Assembly: GCA_032250585.1 (NCBI GenBank) | Contig: JAVVFH010000002.1 | Location: 1-40,396 of the forward strand | Direction: 5' to 3' | Origin: Lysobacterales bacterium | GTDB lineage: Bacteria; Pseudomonadota; Gammaproteobacteria; Xanthomonadales; SZUA-36 | Length of the DNA: 40,396 bases | Shown here: positions 2,406 through 29,262 of the stretch, piece after piece | How the letters are laid out: every line of letters starts with the position of its first letter | Position numbering within the stretch: position 1 is the stretch's first letter | Translations under genes and position numbers: made by a program | The notes under the pieces: generated by a model | What the model was told of the DNA's origin: nothing | What the model saw: the letters and a program-made list of their open reading frames with translations, nothing else | The model's database searches: none

Positions 2406-4337
2406 ATGACCCGCAATAAGCCTGAAACGAACGACCTGCGCACAGCGGTTGGATCGCTGCTCGATGGCCGCATGTCACGCCGCAGCCTGCTGGCGCGGCT
2501 GATCGGCGCCGGGATTGCGGCCCCGGCCGCCAGCGCGGTTCTGGCCGGCATTTTGCCGCAGACGGCTGGCGCCGGTGACGAGACCGTGCACGGCCTCACC
2601 GGTGGCGAACTCACGGTCGAATTCCTGCGCCGGTGGCGCGTACCTTACGTCTTCGGGCTCGGCGGCTCGGAGGAGGTCGGGTTTCTGGACGCGCTGGTGG
2701 GGCGGGAGGATCTGCATTACGTGTTGGCACTGCACGAAGGCTCGGTGCTGTCGATGGCAGACGGTTATGCCCGCGCCACCGGCCGGCCGGCATTCGTCAA
2801 CCTGCATTCGGTCGTCGGCGCGAGCTACGCATTGGGGCCGATGGTCAACGCGTTCCACGACCGCACACCGCTGGTCGTGACCGTGGGACGGCAGTCGACC
2901 CAGCTGCGCGGCGCGAATGCTTTTCTCGAGTCAGTCAACCTGCACATGCTGCCACGCGACTATACGCGCTGGACCTGGGATGTGCTGACGGCCGCCAGCA
3001 TACCGGAAACACTGCGCCGCGCCGTTCTGCTCGCGCGCATCCCCCCGGGCGGGCCGACCTTCGTGACCGTGTCGAAAGACCTGTGGGAACAACCGGTCGC
3101 AGAGTCGGTGATCGTGCCGCCGGAACGCTCGCCGGTGGACGTCGAAATCCGGCCGGATGAGGGCACCATCGAGTCGCTGGTCGAACTGCTGCTCGCGGCG
3201 CGGAATCCCGTCATCATCGCCGGGCGCGAGATTGCCGCGCACGGCGCCACCACGGAACTGGTGGAAATTGCCGAACTGCTCGGTGCGACGGTCGCCGGCG
3301 ACGTGCCCGCGAGTCACAGCCCGGCGGGGTTCCCGACCACTCACGCCCAGTACGGTGGCCTGTTGACGCTCGACCCCGAATTACCACAGCAGTACGACCT
3401 GCTTTGGTCGGCCGGCGGAACGATGTTCACCCTTTTCGATCGAGCCAGCGCACCACCGCTCCCGGCCGGTGTCACGCTCGTCCATTCAAGCATTGAGGCC
3501 GGTCAGATCGGACGCAATTACCCGGTCGACCTGGCGGTCACCGGCCATGCCAGAACCACGCTGGCTCGAGTGCGGGACGCGCTGCTCGCTCAGGGCGTTG
3601 CGCCGGCCGCTGTTGCAGAGCGTCGCGAGCGCGCCGGACGCCGACACGCAGCGCGGCACAAGCGGCTCGAAACCCTCGTCAAAGATCATTGGGATGACGA
3701 CCCCATCTCGCCCGAGCGATTCGCGGTGGAACTGGATCGCCAGCTGGCGCCGGAGGCCCATATCGTTTCGGAGCTCGCGACCTCCGATCTGTTTCTGTGG
3801 CGGCACATCAATTTCCTGCAGGCCGGGCGGGGCCGCCGGCACTTCACGTCGGCCGGCGGCTGCCTGGGATGGGGGCTGGGTGCAGCGATCGGGGTCAAGA
3901 TCGCAGAGCCGCAACGCGAAGTGGCGCTGCTGGTTGGCGACGGCAGCATGCAGTTCGGCATTCAGGCCCTGTGGAGCGCCTCACGTTATGAAGTGCCGGT
4001 CGCGATCTTTGTCTGGAACAACCAGGCTTACCAGGCCAACCGCAACGCCCTGCACCGCTACAGAGGCCGCTCGGCGGCGAGCGGACAGTACATCGGCTGC
4101 TATTTGGGGGCGCCCGAGATCGATAACGTTCAGATTGCCCGGGGTTACGGCGTCGAGGCGGAACGGATCACCCGGCCGGAAGACCTCCGGGCGGGCATCG
4201 CACGCTGCCTGAGTGCGGTTGGCGAGGGTCGGCCCTGCCTGCTGGACGTGGCGATTCAGCCGCGCCTCGGCGGCGCGCAATCCACCTGGTACGACGCGTT
4301 CTCGATCGCCCGCCTGCAGGCGGGCGAAGCCGTCTGA
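2406..4337 (+). CDS. Thiamine-diphosphate-dependent enzyme (acetolactate synthase / benzoylformate decarboxylase-like) with a Tat signal peptide; likelier start at 2472
   Basis: ThDP-binding motif GDGSMQF...WNN fits GDG-X24-NN. The N-terminal GGSEEVGFLDAL region carries the cofactor-activating Glu. The size fits a three-domain enzyme. The internal Met at 2472 starts MSRRSLLARLIGAGIAAPAASAVLAGILPQTAGA: an SRRxLL twin-arginine motif, a hydrophobic core and an AGA cleavage site. Confidence 0.85.
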   Translation: MTRNKPETNDLRTAVGSLLDGRMSRRSLLARLIGAGIAAPAASAVLAGILPQTAGAGDETVHGLTGGELTVEFLRRWRVPYVFGLGGSEEVGFLDALVGREDLHYVLALHEGSVLSMADGYARATGRPAFVNLHSVVGASYALGPMVNAFHDRTPLVVTVGRQSTQLRGANAFLESVNLHMLPRDYTRWTWDVLTAASIPETLRRAVLLARIPPGGPTFVTVSKDLWEQPVAESVIVPPERSPVDVEIRPDEGTIESLVELLLAARNPVIIAGREIAAHGATTELVEIAELLGATVAGDVPASHSPAGFPTTHAQYGGLLTLDPELPQQYDLLWSAGGTMFTLFDRASAPPLPAGVTLVHSSIEAGQIGRNYPVDLAVTGHARTTLARVRDALLAQGVAPAAVAERRERAGRRHAARHKRLETLVKDHWDDDPISPERFAVELDRQLAPEAHIVSELATSDLFLWRHINFLQAGRGRRHFTSAGGCLGWGLGAAIGVKIAEPQREVALLVGDGSMQFGIQALWSASRYEVPVAIFVWNNQAYQANRNALHRYRGRSAASGQYIGCYLGAPEIDNVQIARGYGVEAERITRPEDLRAGIARCLSAVGEGRPCLLDVAIQPRLGGAQSTWYDAFSIARLQAGEAV

Positions 4338-20921: not shown

Positions 20922-20947
20922 GACTGCCTTAAGGTTTGTCCCTTAAG
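20917..20947. promoter_or_regulatory. Three CTTAAG palindromes within 31 nt at the attH-like / hemolysin-like gene junction
   Basis: ccCTTAAGactgcCTTAAGgtttgtccCTTAAGctg. The middle copy is the 8-bp palindrome ccttaagg. This is an AT-core hexamer clustered in a GC-rich genome, and it overlaps the stop codon at 20919-20921. Confidence 0.25.
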
Positions 20948-20983
20948 CTGGCGGCAACTTATGGCTTTGCGCCGGATGGCCCC

Positions 20984-21745
20984 ATGTCTTACCCAAACAG
21001 GAAATCCCTCGCTCCTTCGATCAGCAACGACGGTCTCGAGGCAAAGGCGTTGCTGCAGCTCACCCGCATACTGAAGCCCGCCCCGGTTTTCGCCGCGCAT
21101 GCACAAAGCAGCCCGGAGCGAACGCACGCCGAGCAATACATCGCGGCCCGCTTCCACGCGGCGCATGGCGCCGATATCCGCGATTTCATGCCCGTCCTGC
21201 TCACCATGCGCTGTCACGGACGCACCACAGCCGCCACCGGCATCCGGGCCGCGGCGCAGCAGCCGCTGTTCCTTGAACAGTACCTCCCCGGTCCGATCGA
21301 GCAGGTGCTGGGTGACATGACCGGCGAAACGATTCAGCGCACGAACATCGCCGAGATCGGCAACCTGGCCGCCACCCAGAGCGGTTCCAGCTACCTGCTG
21401 TTCATCGTGCTGAGCGCCATTCTCGAGCAGGCCCGCTTCGACTGGGTCGTTTTCACCGCCACGCCCCGGGTCCGAAAGATGTTGGGCCGTCTGGGATTAA
21501 GGGTGCATGTCCTGTGTGCAGCCGACCCCGCTTGCCTGACCCGGTCGGCGGCAGCCGAATGGGGCCGCTACTACGCCAGCGGACCGCAAGTGTTGGCCGG
21601 CCGGGTAGGCGACGCGATGGACGTATTGAGCCAGCGCCGACCATACGCCAGCCTGCTGTCCCTGTTTCGTGGTCCCATCGGTGAGATGGCGAAAACCGTC
21701 AGGCGGGACAGCTCCCGGAATGGAAGCCATGTTCTCGCCGCGTGA
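20984..21745 (+). CDS. Thermostable-hemolysin (delta-VPH)-family protein, probable GNAT-like acyltransferase
   Basis: ERTHAEQYIAARFHAAHGADIRDFMPVLL..., ...LFLEQYL..PIEQVL......R..IAEIGNLAA... and ...WVVFTAT..V...L.RLGL match my recollection of the T_hemolysin family. The ATG at 20984 is chosen; the TTG at 20936 is possible. Confidence 0.7.
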   Translation: MSYPNRKSLAPSISNDGLEAKALLQLTRILKPAPVFAAHAQSSPERTHAEQYIAARFHAAHGADIRDFMPVLLTMRCHGRTTAATGIRAAAQQPLFLEQYLPGPIEQVLGDMTGETIQRTNIAEIGNLAATQSGSSYLLFIVLSAILEQARFDWVVFTATPRVRKMLGRLGLRVHVLCAADPACLTRSAAAEWGRYYASGPQVLAGRVGDAMDVLSQRRPYASLLSLFRGPIGEMAKTVRRDSSRNGSHVLAA

Positions 21746-23246
21746 TCGCGCCTTTTCTGCGCGTGCTGATGCCGCTGACCCAATCGCGGTCAGCGGCACA
21801 GCCCAGGCCTGGACACGCTCGCGGCTGACGGAACGCTGCAGCGCCCTGGCTGAACGGCTGACGGCTCTGGATCTGCAAGTCGTGGCGCTGCACATGGACA
21901 ACCGGCCAGAGTGGATCGTCATCGACATGGCCTGCCAGGCTGCGTCCGTCTGCCTGGTGCCGCTACCCGGTTTTTTTTCGCCGGCACAGCTGCGGCATAT
22001 CCTGAACACCGTTCCGATCGACGGGGTGCTGACCGAACAGCCTGAAATGCTCTCACCCCTTTGCGCCGACCGCCTGCGCCCCGGAATGGATCTGCCGTTG
22101 GGTGGGAGCACCCTGCTGCGACTGAAGCGGGTCCGAAACACTCAGGTGCTGCCCGCCGGCACCGGAAAAATCACCTTCACTTCCGGTTCGACCGGACGGC
22201 CCAAAGGCGTCTGTCTCAGCAACGGGCAACTGCAGGCACAGGCCGCGGCGCTGGCCGCCGCGGTGGGTCTCGAGCAGCCCCGGCATCTCTGCCTGCTGCC
22301 ACTGAGCACCCTGCTGGAGAACGTCGCCGGCGTCTACGCGCCGCTGTTGTCCGGCGGCGAAGTGGTGGTGCCCACCCTGGCGGAAATCGGTTTTTATGGC
22401 AGCTCGTCACTGGATACCGGACTGTTCCTCGAACAGATCAGCCAGCAGCAGCCCAACAGCATTCTCCTGACACCGCAGCTGCTGCAAATCCTCGTGTCCG
22501 CAGCCGGCAATGGCTGGCAGCCGCCGGCCTCACTGGTCTTCGCCGCGGTGGGCGGCGCGAAGGTGCCGGTCGCCTTGCTACAAAGGGCCCGGGCCCTGGG
22601 CATCCCGGCTTTCGAAGGTTACGGGCTTTCGGAATGCGCCTCAGTGGTCAGCCTGAACCGGCCCGGCCGCGACCGGCCCGGCAGCTGTGGCCAGCCGCTG
22701 GCTCAGCTGGGAATCACCGTCGACGACGGGGAAATCCGCGTGGCCGGCAATGCCATGCTCGGCTATGCCGGCGAGCCGGAGAGCTGGGGACAGGACCAGA
22801 TTGCGACCGGCGACCTCGGCTACCTGGACAACGAGGGGTTCCTGTACATCAACGGTCGCAAAAAAAACCTGTTGATCACCAGCTTCGGGCGAAACATTGC
22901 TCCGGAGTGGGTCGAAAGCGAAGCGCTCGCCAGTGGTGTTCTGGCCGAATGCGTGGTGGTCGGTGACGCGAGGCCGTTCTGCATCGCCCTGCTGTCGCCG
23001 CGCAACCCGGCCGCAGCAGACGAGACCATCCAAAGCGCGATCGACGACAGCAACGCGCGCCTGCCGGACTACGCCCACATCAGGCGCTGGCACCGCCTCG
23101 TGCAGCCGCTGGCCGACAGCAGCGAACTGATCACCGAAAACGGCCGTCCTAAACGCCATGCCATCATCACGCGCTACCAGAGCGTGATCGATGCCCTCTA
23201 CGCAGGCGATACCTGCGCCGCCAAACCTTACGCGAGAACCGCATGA
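21720..23246 (+). CDS. AMP-dependent synthetase/ligase (acyl-CoA or acyl-adenylate forming)
   Basis: Adenylation core motifs TFTSGSTGRPKGV, EGYGLSECAS, TGDLGYLDNEGFLYINGRKKNLL and a C-terminal NGRPKR. The start overlaps the end of the upstream gene. Confidence 0.85.
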   Translation: MEAMFSPRDRAFSARADAADPIAVSGTAQAWTRSRLTERCSALAERLTALDLQVVALHMDNRPEWIVIDMACQAASVCLVPLPGFFSPAQLRHILNTVPIDGVLTEQPEMLSPLCADRLRPGMDLPLGGSTLLRLKRVRNTQVLPAGTGKITFTSGSTGRPKGVCLSNGQLQAQAAALAAAVGLEQPRHLCLLPLSTLLENVAGVYAPLLSGGEVVVPTLAEIGFYGSSSLDTGLFLEQISQQQPNSILLTPQLLQILVSAAGNGWQPPASLVFAAVGGAKVPVALLQRARALGIPAFEGYGLSECASVVSLNRPGRDRPGSCGQPLAQLGITVDDGEIRVAGNAMLGYAGEPESWGQDQIATGDLGYLDNEGFLYINGRKKNLLITSFGRNIAPEWVESEALASGVLAECVVVGDARPFCIALLSPRNPAAADETIQSAIDDSNARLPDYAHIRRWHRLVQPLADSSELITENGRPKRHAIITRYQSVIDALYAGDTCAAKPYARTA

Positions 23247-23914
23247 GTTTCTTCCCGACGTTACAGAACGAAACCGAAACCGCCCGTGGTGAACTTTTGA
23301 CCGTGCCACTCATCCAACGGGCCCTGGCCGGACGCATCACCCGATCCGAATACGCGGCCTTCCTGGCCCAGGCCTATCACCACGTGCGGCACACCGTGCC
23401 GCTGCTGATGGCAGTCGGCAGCCGGCTGCCTGATTCCTGCGGCTGGCTGCGGGTCGCGGTTGCCGAATACATCGCGGAAGAGATCGGTCACGAAGAGTGG
23501 ATCCTCAATGACATCACGGCCTGCGGGTTCGACGCCGAAGCGGTGCGCCGCAGCAGGCCCGCGATCCCGACCGAGTTGATGGTCGCTTATGCCTATGACC
23601 TCATCGATCGCGTCAATCCGCTCGGTTTCTTCGGCATGGTACACGTGCTGGAAGGAACCTCCGTCGCCATCGCCGATAACGCGGCCCGTTCGATCGGGGA
23701 AAGTCTGTCGCTGCCCGAAAACGCGTTCACCTACCTTTACTCTCACGGCACGCTCGACATCGAACACCTGAAGTTCTTCGAAGATTTAATGAACCGGATC
23801 GAAGGACCGGCAGACCAGGCGCAGATCATCCACTCAGCCCGCGTGTTCTACGGCCTCTACGGCGATATTTTCCGATCGCTGGACGGCACCACAGCCCCGG
23901 CGCTGGCGGCCTGA
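23243..23914 (+). CDS. Heme-oxygenase-like (TenA/PqqC/CADD-like) iron-containing redox enzyme, candidate diiron oxidase
   Basis: All-helical 223-aa protein with carboxylate/His clusters AEYIAEEIGHEEW, MVHVLEGTS and YSHGTLDIEHLKFFEDL. ATGA start/stop overlap with the ligase gene. Confidence 0.7.
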   Translation: MSFFPTLQNETETARGELLTVPLIQRALAGRITRSEYAAFLAQAYHHVRHTVPLLMAVGSRLPDSCGWLRVAVAEYIAEEIGHEEWILNDITACGFDAEAVRRSRPAIPTELMVAYAYDLIDRVNPLGFFGMVHVLEGTSVAIADNAARSIGESLSLPENAFTYLYSHGTLDIEHLKFFEDLMNRIEGPADQAQIIHSARVFYGLYGDIFRSLDGTTAPALAA

Positions 23915-24696
23915 TGGACTGCAGAGGCAAACAGGTTCTGCTGGCCGGGGCCAGCGGCGGCATCGGGCAGGCGATCGCGCTGGAACTGGACCGCGCCGGC
24001 GCCCTGCTGACCCTGGTCGGGCGCAGCGAAGACAAGCTGGTTGCCCTGTGCCGCCAACTCGAGGGACCCCAACAGCTGATCGCCGCCAACCTCGACGACC
24101 CCACGCAGCGCGACCGGGTCGTGCGGCATTGCGAGCAAAACGGCCTGGATATCCTGATCAATGCCGTCGGCGTCATGGACTTTCGGCTGTTCGATGCGCA
24201 GGCGCCCGTCGAGATCGAGCGCATGGTCAGGACCAACCTGTTGACCCCCATGCTGCTGTGCCAGCGACTGCTGCCCATGCTGCGACAGCGCGACGAAGCG
24301 GTCATCGTCAACATCGGCTCCATTTTCGGCAGCATCGGGCATCCCGGTTTCGCCGCCTATTGCGCCAGCAAGTTCGGCCTGCGGGGTTTTACCGAGGCAT
24401 TGCAGCGAGAACTGCACGACAGCAGCGTGCGCGTTTCTTATCTTGCACCCCGTGCCACCCGCACGGATCTGAACACGGCCGCGGTCACGGCCCTCAACGA
24501 AGCGCTAGGCAACGCAACCGATACGCCGGAACAGGTGGCCGCTGCAGTGCTCAGGATGCTCGTTCAGAAAAGCCGACAACGCTACATCGGCTGGCCGGAA
24601 AACCTGTTCGTTCGCCTGAACGGTCTGTTCCCGAACCTCGTCCATAACGCGCTGGTGCGCAAAATGCATATCATCCGGTCGCATGCCGAAACCTGA
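23914..24696 (+). CDS. Short-chain dehydrogenase/reductase
   Basis: Cofactor motif LLAGASGGIGQA, NAVG, and the catalytic S...YCASK triad. TGATG overlap with the upstream gene. Confidence 0.88.
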   Translation: MDCRGKQVLLAGASGGIGQAIALELDRAGALLTLVGRSEDKLVALCRQLEGPQQLIAANLDDPTQRDRVVRHCEQNGLDILINAVGVMDFRLFDAQAPVEIERMVRTNLLTPMLLCQRLLPMLRQRDEAVIVNIGSIFGSIGHPGFAAYCASKFGLRGFTEALQRELHDSSVRVSYLAPRATRTDLNTAAVTALNEALGNATDTPEQVAAAVLRMLVQKSRQRYIGWPENLFVRLNGLFPNLVHNALVRKMHIIRSHAET

Positions 24697-24712
24697 ATTG
24701 GAGACTCTGTCC

Positions 24713-25360
24713 ATGAAAAATGCTTTATCGATTGTTTTTGTTCTGATCCTTTGCCTGGGCACCAGCCAGGCGGTTACAGCCGGCGACGACGAAATCCTGC
24801 GGCTGCAGCAACGCTGGGCCGAGGTAAACTATCAACTGGAAGGCAAGACACGCCTGACGGCATTCGAGGAACTGGTCCGCGAGGCCGACCAACTGACCGC
24901 CAGCAAGCCCGACTTCGCAGCCGCCTACATCTGGAGCGGCATCATCAAATCTTCCTTCGCCGGCGCCCGGGGCGGTCTCGGCGCGATGAAGCTGGCCAAG
25001 GCCGCGCGCACCGACCTGGAGCGCGCCATGGAAATCGATGCAGACGCGCTGCAGGGCTCCGCCTATACCAGCCTCGGCACGCTGTACTACAAGGTGCCCG
25101 GCTGGCCAGTGGGCTTCGGCGACGAGCGCAAGGCAGAGGAGCTGTTGCGCACGGCACTCACTCTGAACCCGGACGGCATTGACCCGAATTATTTCTATGG
25201 GGACTTTCTGCTGGATCAGAAGCGCTACGAAGAGGCCGAAAAAGCCCTGCTCAAGGCGCAACAGTCGCCGGCCCGGCCCGATCGCCCGCTGGCCGATGCC
25301 GGCAGACAGGAAGAGATCGAAGTGGCATTATTGAAGGTCCGAAAGAAACTTCGCAAATGA
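24713..25360 (+). CDS. Secreted TPR-like helical-repeat protein
   Basis: The ATG at 24713 is preceded by a GGAGA RBS. Signal peptide MKNALSIVFVLILCLGTSQAVTA. The helical repeats are rich in A/L/E/Y (AAYIWSGII, GSAYTSLGTLYYK, NYFYGDFLLDQKRYEEAEKALLKA). Confidence 0.62.
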   Translation: MKNALSIVFVLILCLGTSQAVTAGDDEILRLQQRWAEVNYQLEGKTRLTAFEELVREADQLTASKPDFAAAYIWSGIIKSSFAGARGGLGAMKLAKAARTDLERAMEIDADALQGSAYTSLGTLYYKVPGWPVGFGDERKAEELLRTALTLNPDGIDPNYFYGDFLLDQKRYEEAEKALLKAQQSPARPDRPLADAGRQEEIEVALLKVRKKLRK

Positions 25361-25378: not shown

Positions 25379-26038
25379 ATGCTGATATTGCTGGTCGAAG
25401 ATGACCGTTCGATAGCCCGGGCCCTCGAGCGGGCGCTGCGCAAGCAGGGCTATAGCGTCAATACGGTCGGCGGCGGCCAGGCGGCCCTGTTGGCGATCGA
25501 AACCGAACTGCCGGATCTTGCCATTCTCGACCTCGGCCTGCCTGACATGGACGGCCTGGAGGTGCTTAGGCAGGTCCGCAAGCGCAATGTGAATCTGCCG
25601 ATCCTGCTGCTGACCGCTCGCGCCGGCCTCGATGACAAGGTAGCCGGTCTCGACAGCGGCGCCGACGACTACCTGGCGAAACCTTTCGAGATGAACGAAC
25701 TGTTCGCCCGTCTGCGCGTCATGGAACGACGCCAGACCACTGCGCGGACCGCAATGATCACGATCGGCGCGGTGACCCTGGACATCAACCGCAACCGTGT
25801 CGCGGTCGACGGCGCAGTGATGGAGCTGTCGCGTCGCGAGTTCATGTTGCTCAAGAACCTGATGGAGAACGCCGGCCGCGTACAGACGCGCAACACGCTC
25901 GAAAGTCGGCTGTATGGCTGGGGCGAGGAGGTCTCCAGCAATGCGCTGGAGGTGCATATCCATCATTTGCGCCGCAAACTCGGCGCCGATTTTATCAAGA
26001 CCGTGCGGGGCGTCGGCTACAGGATCGAGAACGCGTGA
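25379..26038 (+). CDS. OmpR/PhoB-family response regulator (QseB/BasR-like)
   Basis: Receiver domain MLILLVEDD...LAILDLGLPDMDG...LLLTA. Winged-helix C-terminus LEVHIHHLRRKLG...IKTVRGVGYRIE. Confidence 0.92.
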   Translation: MLILLVEDDRSIARALERALRKQGYSVNTVGGGQAALLAIETELPDLAILDLGLPDMDGLEVLRQVRKRNVNLPILLLTARAGLDDKVAGLDSGADDYLAKPFEMNELFARLRVMERRQTTARTAMITIGAVTLDINRNRVAVDGAVMELSRREFMLLKNLMENAGRVQTRNTLESRLYGWGEEVSSNALEVHIHHLRRKLGADFIKTVRGVGYRIENA

Positions 26039-27705
26039 ATTCGATCCGGGTGTTTCTGGTCACCGTCATCCTGGCCACCATCGCGCTGTTCTACTTTGTA
26101 GCGGCGCTGCGCGGCTACCAGTCCAGCATGCAGGAAGCTGAGCGCCTGTTCGACAAGCAGCTGCTGGACACGGCCCGCCTGATCGCCAGCCTGCACGCGG
26201 AGCAGGCAAACAACGAGCTCGGCCACGACGCCGGCATGGCGTTTCAGGTCTGGCAGGGCGAACGACTGCTGGCTTTCTCGCGCAATGCCCCCACCACCGC
26301 CATCGCGCCGCACAGGTCCGGCTTCGGTTTCGCCAACTTCGCAGGCTATCGATGGCGCACGACCGCTTATTTCGATGCGGCGAACGGCGACTGGATTCTG
26401 GTCGCCGATCGCACCGATCTGCGTTCCGCCCTGGCCGAGAACGTCATTCTCGAATCGCTGTTGCCGACGCTGATCGGACTGCCGGTAGTCGGCCTGCTGA
26501 TCTGGCTGATCGTGACCGGGGGCTTGCGGCCCCTGCGGATGCTGGCGAAGGAGTTGGCCAGCAAGCAGCCGGACGATTTGACGCCGTTGGCCACCAAGAC
26601 ACCCAAGCGGGAACTGGAGCAGATCGTGGTTTCCTGCAATGGCCTGCTGCAAAGGCTGGAAACCTCGCTGTTGCGCGAAAAACAATTCGCCTCAGACGCC
26701 GCGCACGAACTCAGAACGCCGATCAGTGCGCTCAAGGTGCAGTTGTACAACCTGTCGCGGGAAGGCATGGCCGAGCCGCATTTGCTGAGTGAACTCGAGC
26801 AGACGGTGCACCGCCTAAAGCATAGCGTCGAGCAGATTTTGGATCTCTACCGCAGTTCGCCGGACCAGTTCAACGCCACATTCGAAGCACTGGATCTGAG
26901 CGCCCTGGCGCGCGACGTTCTCGCTGGAGAGTGCACCGCCTTCGATCGCAAGCAGCAACAGCTCGAATTCCGGGGCCAGCCCTGCACGATTGCCGGCGAC
27001 CGGTTTGCCTTGACGACCCTGCTGCGTAATCTGCTCAGCAATGCCAACAAGTACACACCGCGCGGCGGGCAGGTCCTGGTGACGGTCGGACAGAAAGACG
27101 ACATCGTGCGCTTGACCGTCGAAGATTCGGGGCCGGGCATCCCGGCTGAGCAGGGCGACCTGATTTTCGAGCGCTTTTTCCGGATTGGCCAGGACCGGCA
27201 CGAATCGGGTGAGACAGGCTGCGGGCTCGGCCTGGCCATCGTCAAGCGGCTGGTGGACCTGCACCGGGGCCACATATCGATCGCCCCTTCGCGTTTTGCG
27301 TCAGGTACGGCGTTCCAGGTCGACTTGCCGCGGCTCCGGCGCCAGGCGGCGGGCGGGACAACGGCCCCCGTTTCGAAATTGGCCTCGAAATCAACTTCGC
27401 TGCTGATTTTACTGCTGAGTGCAACCCCTTTACAGGCAGGACCGCCCATAGTCGAGATCGAAATCCGCGACCACCTGTTCTTTCCGCCCGAGGTGGTGAT
27501 CCCGGCGAACACCAAGGTCAAACTGCTGATCAAGAATCTCGACCCGACCCCCGAGGAATTCGAAAGTTACGAACTGAACCGCGAGAAGGTCATCAGCGGC
27601 AACAGTCAAACCGTCATCTTCATCGGCCCGTTGCCCGCCGGCGAGTATCCGTTCTTCGGCGAATTCTATCCAAAGACCGCCCAGGGCAAGGTCCGGGTCG
27701 AGTAA
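26035..27705 (+). CDS. Sensor histidine kinase (QseC/BasS-like) whose ORF continues in frame into a signal-anchor plus cupredoxin-like domain
   Basis: The GTG at 26035 overlaps the regulator stop (GTGA). Two TM helices flank a periplasmic domain. H-box AAHELRTPISAL, N-box LLSNANKYTP, G-boxes EDSGPGIP and GCGLGLAIV are present. There is no stop codon after the ATPase domain, and 109 further codons follow (see next feature). Confidence 0.85.
   Translation: MNSIRVFLVTVILATIALFYFVAALRGYQSSMQEAERLFDKQLLDTARLIASLHAEQANNELGHDAGMAFQVWQGERLLAFSRNAPTTAIAPHRSGFGFANFAGYRWRTTAYFDAANGDWILVADRTDLRSALAENVILESLLPTLIGLPVVGLLIWLIVTGGLRPLRMLAKELASKQPDDLTPLATKTPKRELEQIVVSCNGLLQRLETSLLREKQFASDAAHELRTPISALKVQLYNLSREGMAEPHLLSELEQTVHRLKHSVEQILDLYRSSPDQFNATFEALDLSALARDVLAGECTAFDRKQQQLEFRGQPCTIAGDRFALTTLLRNLLSNANKYTPRGGQVLVTVGQKDDIVRLTVEDSGPGIPAEQGDLIFERFFRIGQDRHESGETGCGLGLAIVKRLVDLHRGHISIAPSRFASGTAFQVDLPRLRRQAAGGTTAPVSKLASKSTSLLILLLSATPLQAGPPIVEIEIRDHLFFPPEVVIPANTKVKLLIKNLDPTPEEFESYELNREKVISGNSQTVIFIGPLPAGEYPFFGEFYPKTAQGKVRVE
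27379..27705 (+). other. Cupredoxin-like (FtrB/EfeO-N-like) periplasmic domain with its own signal-peptide-like segment; either the C-terminal domain of the kinase or a nested gene starting at TTG 27379
   Basis: (L/M)ASKSTSLLILLLSATPLQA is followed by PPIVEIEIRDHLFFPPEVVIPANTKVKLLIKNLDPTPEEFESYELNREKVISGNSQTVIFIGPLPAGEYPFFGEFYPKTAQGKVRVE. This resembles the roughly 110-aa cupredoxin proteins normally encoded next to FTR1 permeases. It has no Cys, hence no type-1 Cu site. Confidence 0.6.
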
Positions 27706-27724: not shown

Positions 27725-28522
27725 ATGCTGCTGATGTCCGTTATCCTGATCCTGCAGGAAACCCTCGAGGCCGCCATGCTGGTCAGTATCCTGGCCGCCG
27801 TCACGCTGCAGGCAGGGCGCCACCTGAGTTGGCTGCCGTGGGGCTTCGCCGGCGGCTGCATCATGGCCTTCGTGTATGCAGCCAACATTCAACGGATCTC
27901 CGAATGGTTCGACTTCGTTGGACAGGAACTGACCAACGCGGCCTTGCAAGCCACGATCGCGGCGGCCATTGTGCTGCTGGCCTGGCGGATATCCCGCATC
28001 TACGCGACCGGCGATGCGGCAGCAGTCGCGCCAGGCCGCCACGGTTCGATGTTCCAGGTCCTTTGCGCCTTGATCATCGGCCTGGCGGTAACCCGGGAAG
28101 GCTCGGAGATCCTCGTGTACCTCGGCGGCTTCCTGGCACAGAGCGACAAGAGCCAGGCCGTGCTGACCGGCAGCGCCATCGGCTTCGGCATCGGCCTCAG
28201 CGTGGGCCTGCTCCTGTTCCATGGCCTGCTGGCGCTGGGCGACAAGCGCTGGATTCCGTTCGCGCTGCTCGGGCTGTTCTGCGGCAATATGCTGGCGCAA
28301 TCGGCCCTCCAACTGACGCAGGCAGACTGGCTGCAGCCGGGCCCAACCCTCTGGGACAGTTCCGCCTGGCTGTCGGAGCACTCGGTCATCGGGCGCTTGC
28401 TATACGCCCTGTTGGGCTACGAAGCCAACCCATCGACGGCCCAGGTCATCGGCTACCTGACCGGGGCCGCGGCCGTGCTGGCTGCCGCCCTGGCGCCGAC
28501 CCGATCCGTGGCCAAGGCGTGA
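27725..28522 (+). CDS. FTR1-family high-affinity iron permease
   Basis: Polytopic membrane protein with one canonical REGSE motif (AVTREGSEILVYLGG). The first-helix motif is degenerate, QETLE instead of RExxE. Confidence 0.82.
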   Translation: MLLMSVILILQETLEAAMLVSILAAVTLQAGRHLSWLPWGFAGGCIMAFVYAANIQRISEWFDFVGQELTNAALQATIAAAIVLLAWRISRIYATGDAAAVAPGRHGSMFQVLCALIIGLAVTREGSEILVYLGGFLAQSDKSQAVLTGSAIGFGIGLSVGLLLFHGLLALGDKRWIPFALLGLFCGNMLAQSALQLTQADWLQPGPTLWDSSAWLSEHSVIGRLLYALLGYEANPSTAQVIGYLTGAAAVLAAALAPTRSVAKA

Positions 28523-28533
28523 CCACGACCATC

Positions 28534-29262
28534 ATGAAGCAGATCGTGCTGGGCTCTGCCCGCGCGGCAGCTCTTCTGGTGTTGCTGACTGCAGCACCCG
28601 CCCCAACGCCGGCGGACGGGGTCATCATCGACAAGGTTTACCATCCCTATGTGCAGCCCCTGGAAAAAGAACTGGAATGGCGCGCGATCCATCAGGATGA
28701 GCAACGAGGCCGCCCGGACAACCTGCAGCTGTATCGCCTCGCTTACGGTCAGTCGCTGGGTGAGCGATGGTTTGCCGAGCTCTACCTCGTGGGCAGCAAC
28801 TCCGACGAGGGTCGTTTCGATATCGAAGCCTACGAAATTGAGGCGCAAAGGCAGCTGACCGAGCAGGGCGAGTACTGGGCCGACTGGGGCGTGCTGTTTG
28901 AGCTCGAGAAGGAGGCCGACCTGGACGCCTGGGAGTTTTCGACCGGCCTGCTCGCCGAGAAGGAATGGGGCCGCTGGAGCGGCACCGCGAACCTATTCCT
29001 GGAGTATGAGTGGGGCTCGGACATCGCTGATGAAGCAGAGACCCGCCTGGGTCTGCAGGCCCGCTATCGACACTCGCCGGGCTTCGAACCCGCTGTCGAA
29101 ATCTACAGCGGGGAAGACACGCACGGCATCGGCCCGGCCGTACTGGGCCAGCTGCCGCTCGGCCACAGGCGTCAAATCAGATGGGAAGCAGGCGTCATTT
29201 TCGGCGTCGGAAGCAAAAGCCCGGACACCACGCTGCGCTTCCTGTTGGAGTTCGAATTTTAA
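28534..29262 (+). CDS. Outer-membrane beta-barrel protein (unknown family)
   Basis: Signal peptide MKQIVLGSARAAALLVLLTAAPAPTPA. Alternating amphipathic strands with many aromatic residues. C-terminus ...TLRFLLEFEF ends in Phe. An alternative GTG start at 28519 overlaps the FTR1 stop (GTGA). Confidence 0.62.
   Translation: MKQIVLGSARAAALLVLLTAAPAPTPADGVIIDKVYHPYVQPLEKELEWRAIHQDEQRGRPDNLQLYRLAYGQSLGERWFAELYLVGSNSDEGRFDIEAYEIEAQRQLTEQGEYWADWGVLFELEKEADLDAWEFSTGLLAEKEWGRWSGTANLFLEYEWGSDIADEAETRLGLQARYRHSPGFEPAVEIYSGEDTHGIGPAVLGQLPLGHRRQIRWEAGVIFGVGSKSPDTTLRFLLEFEF

Follow-up and report, generated by a model that had tools for sequence, protein, structure and literature searches.

In the 40,396-nucleotide stretch of DNA analysed here (hereafter, the window; contig JAVVFH010000002.1 of GenBank assembly GCA_032250585.1, from a Lysobacterales bacterium), a sensor histidine kinase and an FtrB-type cupredoxin are encoded by a single uninterrupted open reading frame (ORF) of 556 aa, located at positions 26035 to 27705 of the forward strand and followed by the gene for an FTR1/EfeU-family iron permease. 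Comparison with related loci indicates that this ORF is a genuine, inherited in-frame gene fusion, not an assembly artefact, and that the fusion is rare yet conserved in a clade of uncultured gammaproteobacteria; we are highly confident that the fused frame is translated as such. On balance, it appears probable that the product is a polyprotein, in which the old signal peptide of the cupredoxin would act as a third membrane pass and be cleaved by signal peptidase I. Each component is of a known kind, the kinase being PmrB-like, the cupredoxin FtrB-like, and the permease of the FTR1 type; what is new is the join between them, and the literature searched yielded no account of a Cupredoxin_1 domain on a kinase or of the arrangement seen here.

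The extent of the ORF was established from the ORF listing and from Pfam searches, which placed four domains in frame along it and bear out the observation, made in an initial annotation of the window, that the kinase frame runs without a stop codon from the end of the kinase (...GTAFQVDLPRL) into the cupredoxin. In the N-terminal part, two predicted transmembrane (TM) segments, TM1 (residues 6–24, 26050 to 26106; Kyte-Doolittle 19-residue mean 2.64) and TM2 (residues 142–160, 26458 to 26514; mean 2.48), border the periplasmic sensor domain 2CSK_N (Pfam; residues 18–136). The cytoplasmic transmitter (26680 to 27333) comprises HisKA (residues 216–274; 37 bits, as compared to a Pfam cut-off of 26.9 bits) and HATPase_c (residues 321–433; E = 3.5e-26, 92 bits, cut-off 26.4), and the kinase boxes read in its translation are complete (the H-box SDAAHELRTP, and NLLSNANKYTP, DSGPGI, FERFFR, and GCGLGL for the N, G1, F, and G2 boxes). 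The H-box histidine, the HATPase_c boxes, and an adjoining OmpR-type regulator together identify the protein as a HisKA-class histidine kinase. As it scored far under the cut-offs of both related NCBIfam equivalogs (QseC, 194.5 bits versus 475 bits; PmrB, 183.5 bits versus 314 bits), the kinase is not an orthologue of either.

Downstream of the kinase end (nt 27333–27336), the same frame continues, without a stop codon, through the linker RRQAAGGTTAPVSKLASKSTS, then LLILLLSATPLQA, and then GPPIVEIEIRDH.... The linker (residues 434–454, 27334 to 27396; RLRRQAAGGTTAPVSKLASKS, with QAAGGTTAPVSK as an example peptide) is basic and fast-evolving, and with about 21 residues before the hydrophobic stretch it is longer than the 17 residues originally assigned to it; it represents the tail of the kinase together with what was once the n-region of the signal peptide. 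No regular structure was predicted for residues 436–453 by AlphaFold2, whose model, built on an eight-sequence alignment, is poor (mean pLDDT 47). An internal signal-peptide-like segment, recognized by hydropathy and motif inspection (residues 455–468, 27397 to 27438; SLLILLLSATPLQA), leads into the mature FtrB-type (Cup-II) cupredoxin domain (PF13473; residues 469–556, 27439 to 27702), which has 88 residues where about 90 had been estimated. The stop codon is situated at 27703–27705 and is separated from the ATG of the FTR1 gene at 27725 by 19 nt.

To find fused homologues, we searched a collection of 5.8 billion proteins with the C-terminal 121 residues as the query, demanding that the matches be kinase-sized. 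This search yielded seven more fused 90%-identity clusters (P0001 to P0007; 553–562 aa, one of them partial), which originate from independent, Illumina-type assemblies of Logan, ENA, NCBI, JGI, and MGnify; for P0001, P0004, and P0005, two contigs each were found, stemming from separate runs or samples. Their kinases are 79–82% (P0001 to P0005), 68% (P0006), and 61% (P0007) identical to that of the window, and the gene order regulator, fusion, FTR1, and a gene for a protein of about 240 aa is kept on the contigs of all seven. The junction DNA is free of stop codons in all eight fused loci, with lengths (240, 243, 246, 252, and 270 nt) that differ solely by multiples of three; the 252 nt of the window recur in three other loci, and the indels within the close clade are of 3, 6, and 6 nt.

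Pairwise comparisons among the fused sequences, using the Nei-Gojobori method, gave low ratios of nonsynonymous to synonymous substitutions (dN/dS) for the cupredoxin domain (0.02–0.06 within the clade of the window and about 0.10 against P0006 and P0007) and for the kinase (0.12–0.27). The linker and hydrophobic segment have ratios of 0.4–1.2, yet are in frame and stop-free throughout. The dS values range from 0.3 to 0.7 within the clade of the window, and from 0.24 to 1.4 across all pairs. Both halves of the protein are thus under purifying selection and, with the kinase boxes and iron ligands kept, functional. Because eight diverged loci from independent assemblies share a common frame as well as purifying selection on both parts, we consider the fusion to be real, in agreement with one of the two possibilities offered by the initial annotation.

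In view of these results, it is very improbable that the two genes are truly separate and only appear joined through an error of sequencing or assembly (a lost stop codon, for instance, or an indel of one base). The window is contig 222 of a fragmented metagenome-assembled genome (430 contigs, 87% complete), and none of the public sequencing runs searched contains it: a 1.4-kb query returned nothing, and the 6–8% word shares obtained with a 471-nt query correspond to conserved parts of relatives. Moreover, since only long proteins were sought, the in-frame property of the hits is partly due to ascertainment, and a probable artefact of this kind was encountered elsewhere, at the locus L121 described below. 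However, the common fused frame was recovered by different assemblers as well as in independent assemblies, in three cases with the very junction length of the window, and alternative frames near the window junction offer neither a start codon nor a kinase-like tail; that an indel artefact should have arisen in eight independent assemblies is not credible, the ascertainment in the search notwithstanding. We consider it just as improbable that the locus is decaying, that is, that a neutral or mildly harmful accident has inactivated the cupredoxin, the kinase, or both. While the fusion is rare, being present in one of 23 genomes of the family and in none of the 150 best 50%-identity representatives, the dN/dS values of both halves are low over dS values of up to 0.7 and beyond, the catalytic boxes and iron ligands are all intact, and the FTR1 gene and the candidate barrel gene that follows it are intact at every fused locus.

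The second possibility offered by the initial annotation was nested in-frame translation, with the TTG at 27379 to 27381 (codon 449) as an independent start; the functional cupredoxin would then be an ordinary secreted pre-protein, and the fusion a by-product. The TTG is indeed at this position, and the product initiated there would have a plausible signal peptide (MASKSTSLLILLLSATPLQA). However, a listing of all potential in-frame start codons (ATG, GTG, or TTG) from the kinase domain to the mature domain showed none at the P0002 locus, and in P0001, P0003, and P0005 the sole candidates were GTG or TTG codons at the beginning of the hydrophobic h-region or inside it. The TTG of the window is not conserved, only P0004 having an approximate counterpart one codon away. 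Furthermore, the predicted pairing of the 15 nt preceding TTG 27379 with the anti-Shine-Dalgarno (anti-SD) sequence amounts to −1.7 kcal/mol, which equals the background (a mean of −2.06 kcal/mol for in-frame positions of the kinase ORF), as compared to −6.9 kcal/mol at the FTR1 start of the window and −5.5 to −10 kcal/mol at several separate orthologues. The lack of a stop codon makes coupling by termination and reinitiation impossible, and the linker is kept in frame by selection, which would be needless if an internal start sufficed. Nested translation is thus unlikely, and the TTG is probably unused. With neither an independent start nor a stop codon, the cupredoxin of the fused clade would be made solely as part of the kinase chain and, having no start codon of its own, would be produced strictly one-to-one with the regulator kinase.

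The C-terminal domain is matched by Cupredoxin_1 (PF13473) at residues 456–553 (E = 1.9e-25, 89–94 bits, as compared to a gathering cut-off of 27 bits) and by the structure of Brucella abortus FtrB (8VUK; E = 6.8e-17 over 78 residues). In Brucella FtrB, E84, E86, and E93 are putative Fe2+/3+ ligands, while D118 and H121 are Cu2+ ligands needed for ferroxidase activity (PMC11966278). The three glutamates are conserved in the window (EFESYELNRE versus EFESLELRKE in FtrB; PEEFESYELNREK) and invariant in all eight fused sequences, whereas the copper ligands are replaced in the window, D118 by Gly and H121 by Tyr (FFGEFYP versus FFDDFHP). D118 is often Gly in FtrB Cluster III (PMC11966278). The domain contains no Cys and hence no type-1 copper site. 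No match to P19/FtrA (PF10634) was found in the 87%-complete genome of the window, and an FtrD-like gene is absent from the locus, no genome-wide search for FtrD having been made; the locus does not have the four components of FtrABCD, in which P19/FtrA and the polyferredoxin FtrD stand alongside FtrB and FtrC, but consists solely of the regulator, the fused gene, FTR1, and the 242-aa protein. Given that the iron ligands are kept, the copper ligands lost, Cys absent, and P19/FtrA lacking from the genome, the domain appears suited to iron binding and not to copper-dependent oxidation, and it may bind iron without having a copper-ferroxidase role.

The segment preceding this domain has the characteristics of a Sec-type signal peptide (a basic n-region, an h-region of about 7–15 residues, and, at −3 and −1, residues that are small or aliphatic), as judged by inspection and hydropathy. 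Five basic residues are present in the 21 positions before it, and the mature N-terminus is net acidic; the h-region, LLILLL(SAT), is short, and the c-region contains Leu at −3 and Ala at −1, the predicted, AxA-type site being L-Q-A followed by G. All eight fused sequences have Ala at −1 (Ala468 in the window) and either Ala or Leu at −3, and the signal-peptide end of separate orthologues carries a matching motif. Within the clade of the window the h-region extends over 11–14 residues, and the Kyte-Doolittle 19-residue mean of the segment is 1.5–1.9 (1.5 in the window itself), as compared to 2.3–3.0 for TM1 and TM2. We found no sign of twin-arginine or lipoprotein export, there being no RR motif adjoining the h-region and no lipobox Cys.

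The short h-region, the invariant Ala at −1, and the Ala or Leu at −3 favour a chain that is cut by signal peptidase I, a more likely outcome than lasting attachment to the kinase. In the sequence of events that we propose, the ribosome would make a single 556-residue chain consisting of TM1, 2CSK_N, TM2, HisKA and ATPase domains, basic linker, former Sec signal peptide, and FtrB-like domain. The former signal peptide would re-engage SecYEG as an N-in/C-out third membrane pass, exporting the 88-residue, iron-binding cupredoxin domain, devoid of a copper site, to the periplasm, and signal peptidase I would most likely cut after Ala468, freeing a normal soluble FtrB-like partner for FTR1 and leaving the kinase with a C-terminal membrane stub. 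If cleaved, the fusion would have almost no selective effect, in keeping with the patchiness of its distribution. Several points weigh against this reading. The case for cleavage is built on h-region length and on the −3/−1 rule; the residue at −1 adjoins a conserved mature N-terminus (A/G-P-P), so that the constancy of its Ala may have another cause; the segments of P0006 and P0007, with 18–19 residues and Kyte-Doolittle means of about 1.8–2.0, could be stable anchors; and the AlphaFold2 model is too poor to inform on the linker or the C-terminal domain.

Less likely is an uncleaved fusion, in which the segment would be a stable third TM helix, and the FtrB-derived domain, with its iron site kept and its copper site lost, would give the kinase dimer a further periplasmic domain; that such a domain would signal to the transmitter how much iron is available or in what state FTR1 is, or would dock on FTR1 and hold the kinase beside the transporter, is likewise a tentative proposal. 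Conservation of the fused frame, with purifying selection on both halves, fits this arrangement, and the topology is consistent with it, basic residues preceding the segment and acidic residues following it. The binder-like rather than oxidase-like ligand set and the TM-like segments of P0006 and P0007 also argue in its favour, as does the absence of an independent cupredoxin gene from the fused loci, the genome of the window having one copy only. However, the h-region of the window clade is typical of cleavable signal peptides not only in its length and low hydropathy but also in containing Ser, Thr, or Pro, and the −3/−1 motif has been retained despite nearly neutral evolution of the linker. 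Moreover, the switching of close relatives between fused and separate states is more easily explained if both states yield the same products, as they would if the fusion is cleaved.

With respect to the distribution of the two arrangements, our surveys indicate that separate genes are the norm. Using the mature domain as the query, we detected the cupredoxin gene in 23 of 94 species representatives of the family, which includes Elongatibacter sediminis, placed by NCBI in the Wenzhouxiangellaceae. Among these 23, a long open frame is present only in the genome of the window (689 codons, versus 117–199 codons in the others); in the remaining 22, as in 79 of 80 further species representatives, kinase and cupredoxin are encoded by two separate genes, whose start and stop codons overlap in most cases. 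In the 80 best loci of the species representatives, whose frames were assigned by tblastn, the cupredoxin is in frame +2 relative to the kinase in 35 and in frame +1 in 30; it is in the same frame with an intervening stop in 14 and without one in a single locus, L121. In the 14 same-frame loci, only the stop codon and a short spacer lie between the genes, and one stop-to-sense change would fuse them. At the protein level, about 5,800 clusters of separate cupredoxins (59–189 aa) were obtained at E <= 1e-20, and no Cupredoxin_1-bearing kinase was found among the 150 best 50%-identity cluster representatives, none of which extends past kinase residue 446. The family, species-representative, and protein-cluster censuses thus agree with the statement, given as established knowledge in the initial annotation, that the cupredoxin, with about 110 aa, usually has a gene to itself directly upstream of that for the permease; the FTR1 gene follows the cupredoxin in all loci examined. 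Loci with kinase, cupredoxin, and FTR1 in this order are widespread among Gammaproteobacteria, with examples in Porticoccus, Methylophaga, Microbulbifer, Elongatibacter, and others.

L121 (3001–4711), a distant relative with 45% identity, was considered as an independent fusion and rejected, as its kinase is frameshifted near nt 3340–3390 and its signal peptide still has a GTG and a strong Shine-Dalgarno sequence (GGGAGGG, −10.8 kcal/mol) in front of it; an indel error of assembly or a very recent stop loss is the likely cause. Two further irregular loci were noted. P0008, on a 413-kb ENA contig, contains a 320-aa ORF in which the C-terminal part of FTR1 is joined to a cupredoxin, in the reverse gene order, and its tail (...GKGRSRSSSGR) looks frameshifted. 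In L037 (G094:C7), the kinase appears to be disrupted, a 280-aa N-terminal ORF being followed by the remainder in the open frame of the cupredoxin, possibly as a result of pseudogene formation or assembly error.

The junctions of separate genes give an indication of how the fusion may have arisen. In six orthologous loci from the family or order, the kinase and cupredoxin are separate ORFs, with a 4-nt start/stop overlap in five; the sixth is G017, the closest of them (69% kinase identity), which has a TAA-T-ATG junction. Of 14 separate junctions inspected individually, eight have ATGA-type overlaps, and an ATGA overlap with frame +2 is the usual form. The three closest separate relatives, G017, G045, and G044, depart from this form, their junctions being frame +1 with TAA-T-ATG, an overlap of 17 nt, or one of 8 nt, and separate cupredoxins that are 88–91% identical to that of the window exist. 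In a maximum-likelihood tree of 22 kinases, all fused sequences fall together with the separate-gene G017 and G045 in one supported clade (96/94), within which P0007 is basal and P0006, G017, G045, and the group of the window (99/98) form a polytomy. The fused state requires two or three changes on this tree, although a topology in which the fused sequences are monophyletic could not be rejected (approximately unbiased test, p = 0.094). On this evidence, the junction is labile in the subclade of the window, with either an old fusion that re-split once or twice or two or three origins; either way, fusing costs little. In the ancestor, kinase and cupredoxin genes were presumably translationally coupled neighbours, typically via an ATGA start/stop overlap, and a small indel or stop loss at the labile junction would have moved the cupredoxin into the kinase frame. 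An APP sequence at the mature N-terminus was considered as a marker of the fused form and dropped, since the separate genes G060, P0160, P0161, and P0174 carry it too.

The fused ORF is preceded by the gene for an OmpR/PhoB-type response regulator (219 aa, 25379 to 26038, forward strand; Pfam Response_reg and Trans_reg_C), whose stop codon overlaps the start of the fusion (GTGA); a regulator occupies the equivalent position in every related locus examined. On the same strand downstream, the FTR1/EfeU-family permease (265 aa, 27725 to 28522; Pfam FTR1, E = 1.3e-13), which scored below the cut-off of NCBIfam EfeU (69 versus 255 bits), is followed by a conserved secreted protein of 242 aa (28534 to 29262 from its ATG, with an alternative GTG at 28519; identified from the translation). 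This protein has no Pfam or NCBIfam match and ends in ...LEFEF, and all of the loci examined, whether fused or separate, have a gene for a protein of 232–242 aa after FTR1; we regard the protein as a candidate for an outer-membrane barrel belonging to a minimal cupredoxin-FTR1 module. Further upstream, the window encodes a T_hemolysin-like acyltransferase, an AMP-ligase, a haem-oxygenase-like protein, an SDR protein, and a TPR protein (20936 to 25360), and these genes keep their order before regulator and fusion in diverged contigs (L022, L025, L029).

If the fusion is cleaved, it would represent a natural bacterial polyprotein processed by signal peptidase, and it would illustrate that coupled neighbouring genes can merge and re-split without cost. 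It would also call for caution in annotation, as such ORFs encode two proteins, and one of the two would be overlooked. If the fusion is not cleaved, it would constitute a new sensor architecture, in which the accessory domain of an iron transporter is physically linked to the transporter's own regulator: a three-pass kinase, with the transporter accessory as a co-sensor, through which the regulator would read the loading state of its own transporter. Our survey found no description of such an architecture for histidine kinases. Either way, the clade offers a natural comparison of fused and split states for the function and stoichiometry of FtrB and FTR1.

The proposed polyprotein can be compared with FbcH of Bradyrhizobium japonicum, from which cytochromes b and c1 are reportedly made, cleavage having been demonstrated, it is said, by Thony-Meyer, James, and Hennecke in 1991. 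In both cases, one ORF encodes two proteins, one of the membrane and one of the periplasm, that have their own genes in most bacteria, and the internal signal peptide of the second moiety acts, or in the window would act, as both export signal and signal-peptidase site. However, the proteins are unrelated, FbcH giving rise to subunits of a respiratory complex and the window fusion to a regulator and a transporter accessory, and the cleavage reportedly demonstrated for FbcH is predicted for the window fusion. Engineered leader-peptidase constructs provide a further precedent for the cleavage of internal signal peptides.

With FtrB of the B. abortus FtrABCD system, the cupredoxin domain shares its fold family, its iron ligands, and the position of its coding sequence directly upstream of an FTR1-family permease gene. 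In contrast to FtrB, it is C-terminal to a histidine kinase, without a start codon of its own, and has Gly and Tyr at the copper-ligand positions; the window module also differs from FtrABCD in its two-component system and in its 242-aa protein, a candidate for the outer membrane, with no FtrA/P19 detected in the genome. In EfeUOB, a cupredoxin of the same Pfam family likewise pairs with an FTR1-family permease: EfeO, which works with the permease EfeU, has an N-terminal cupredoxin domain fused to an M75 domain, and cupredoxin fusion therefore has a precedent. However, the fusion partner in EfeO is periplasmic, the signal peptide is N-terminal, and no kinase is involved.

Finally, the kinase half resembles the two-TM kinases of the QseC/PmrB(BasS) type, with which it has in common both the domain order (TM1, 2CSK_N, TM2, (HAMP), HisKA, HATPase_c) and an OmpR-type regulator encoded upstream. 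PmrB senses Fe3+, which fits the place of the window kinase in an iron-uptake operon. However, no QseC/PmrB-type kinase is known to cross the membrane a third time and to end in a periplasmic domain, as is predicted for the window fusion.

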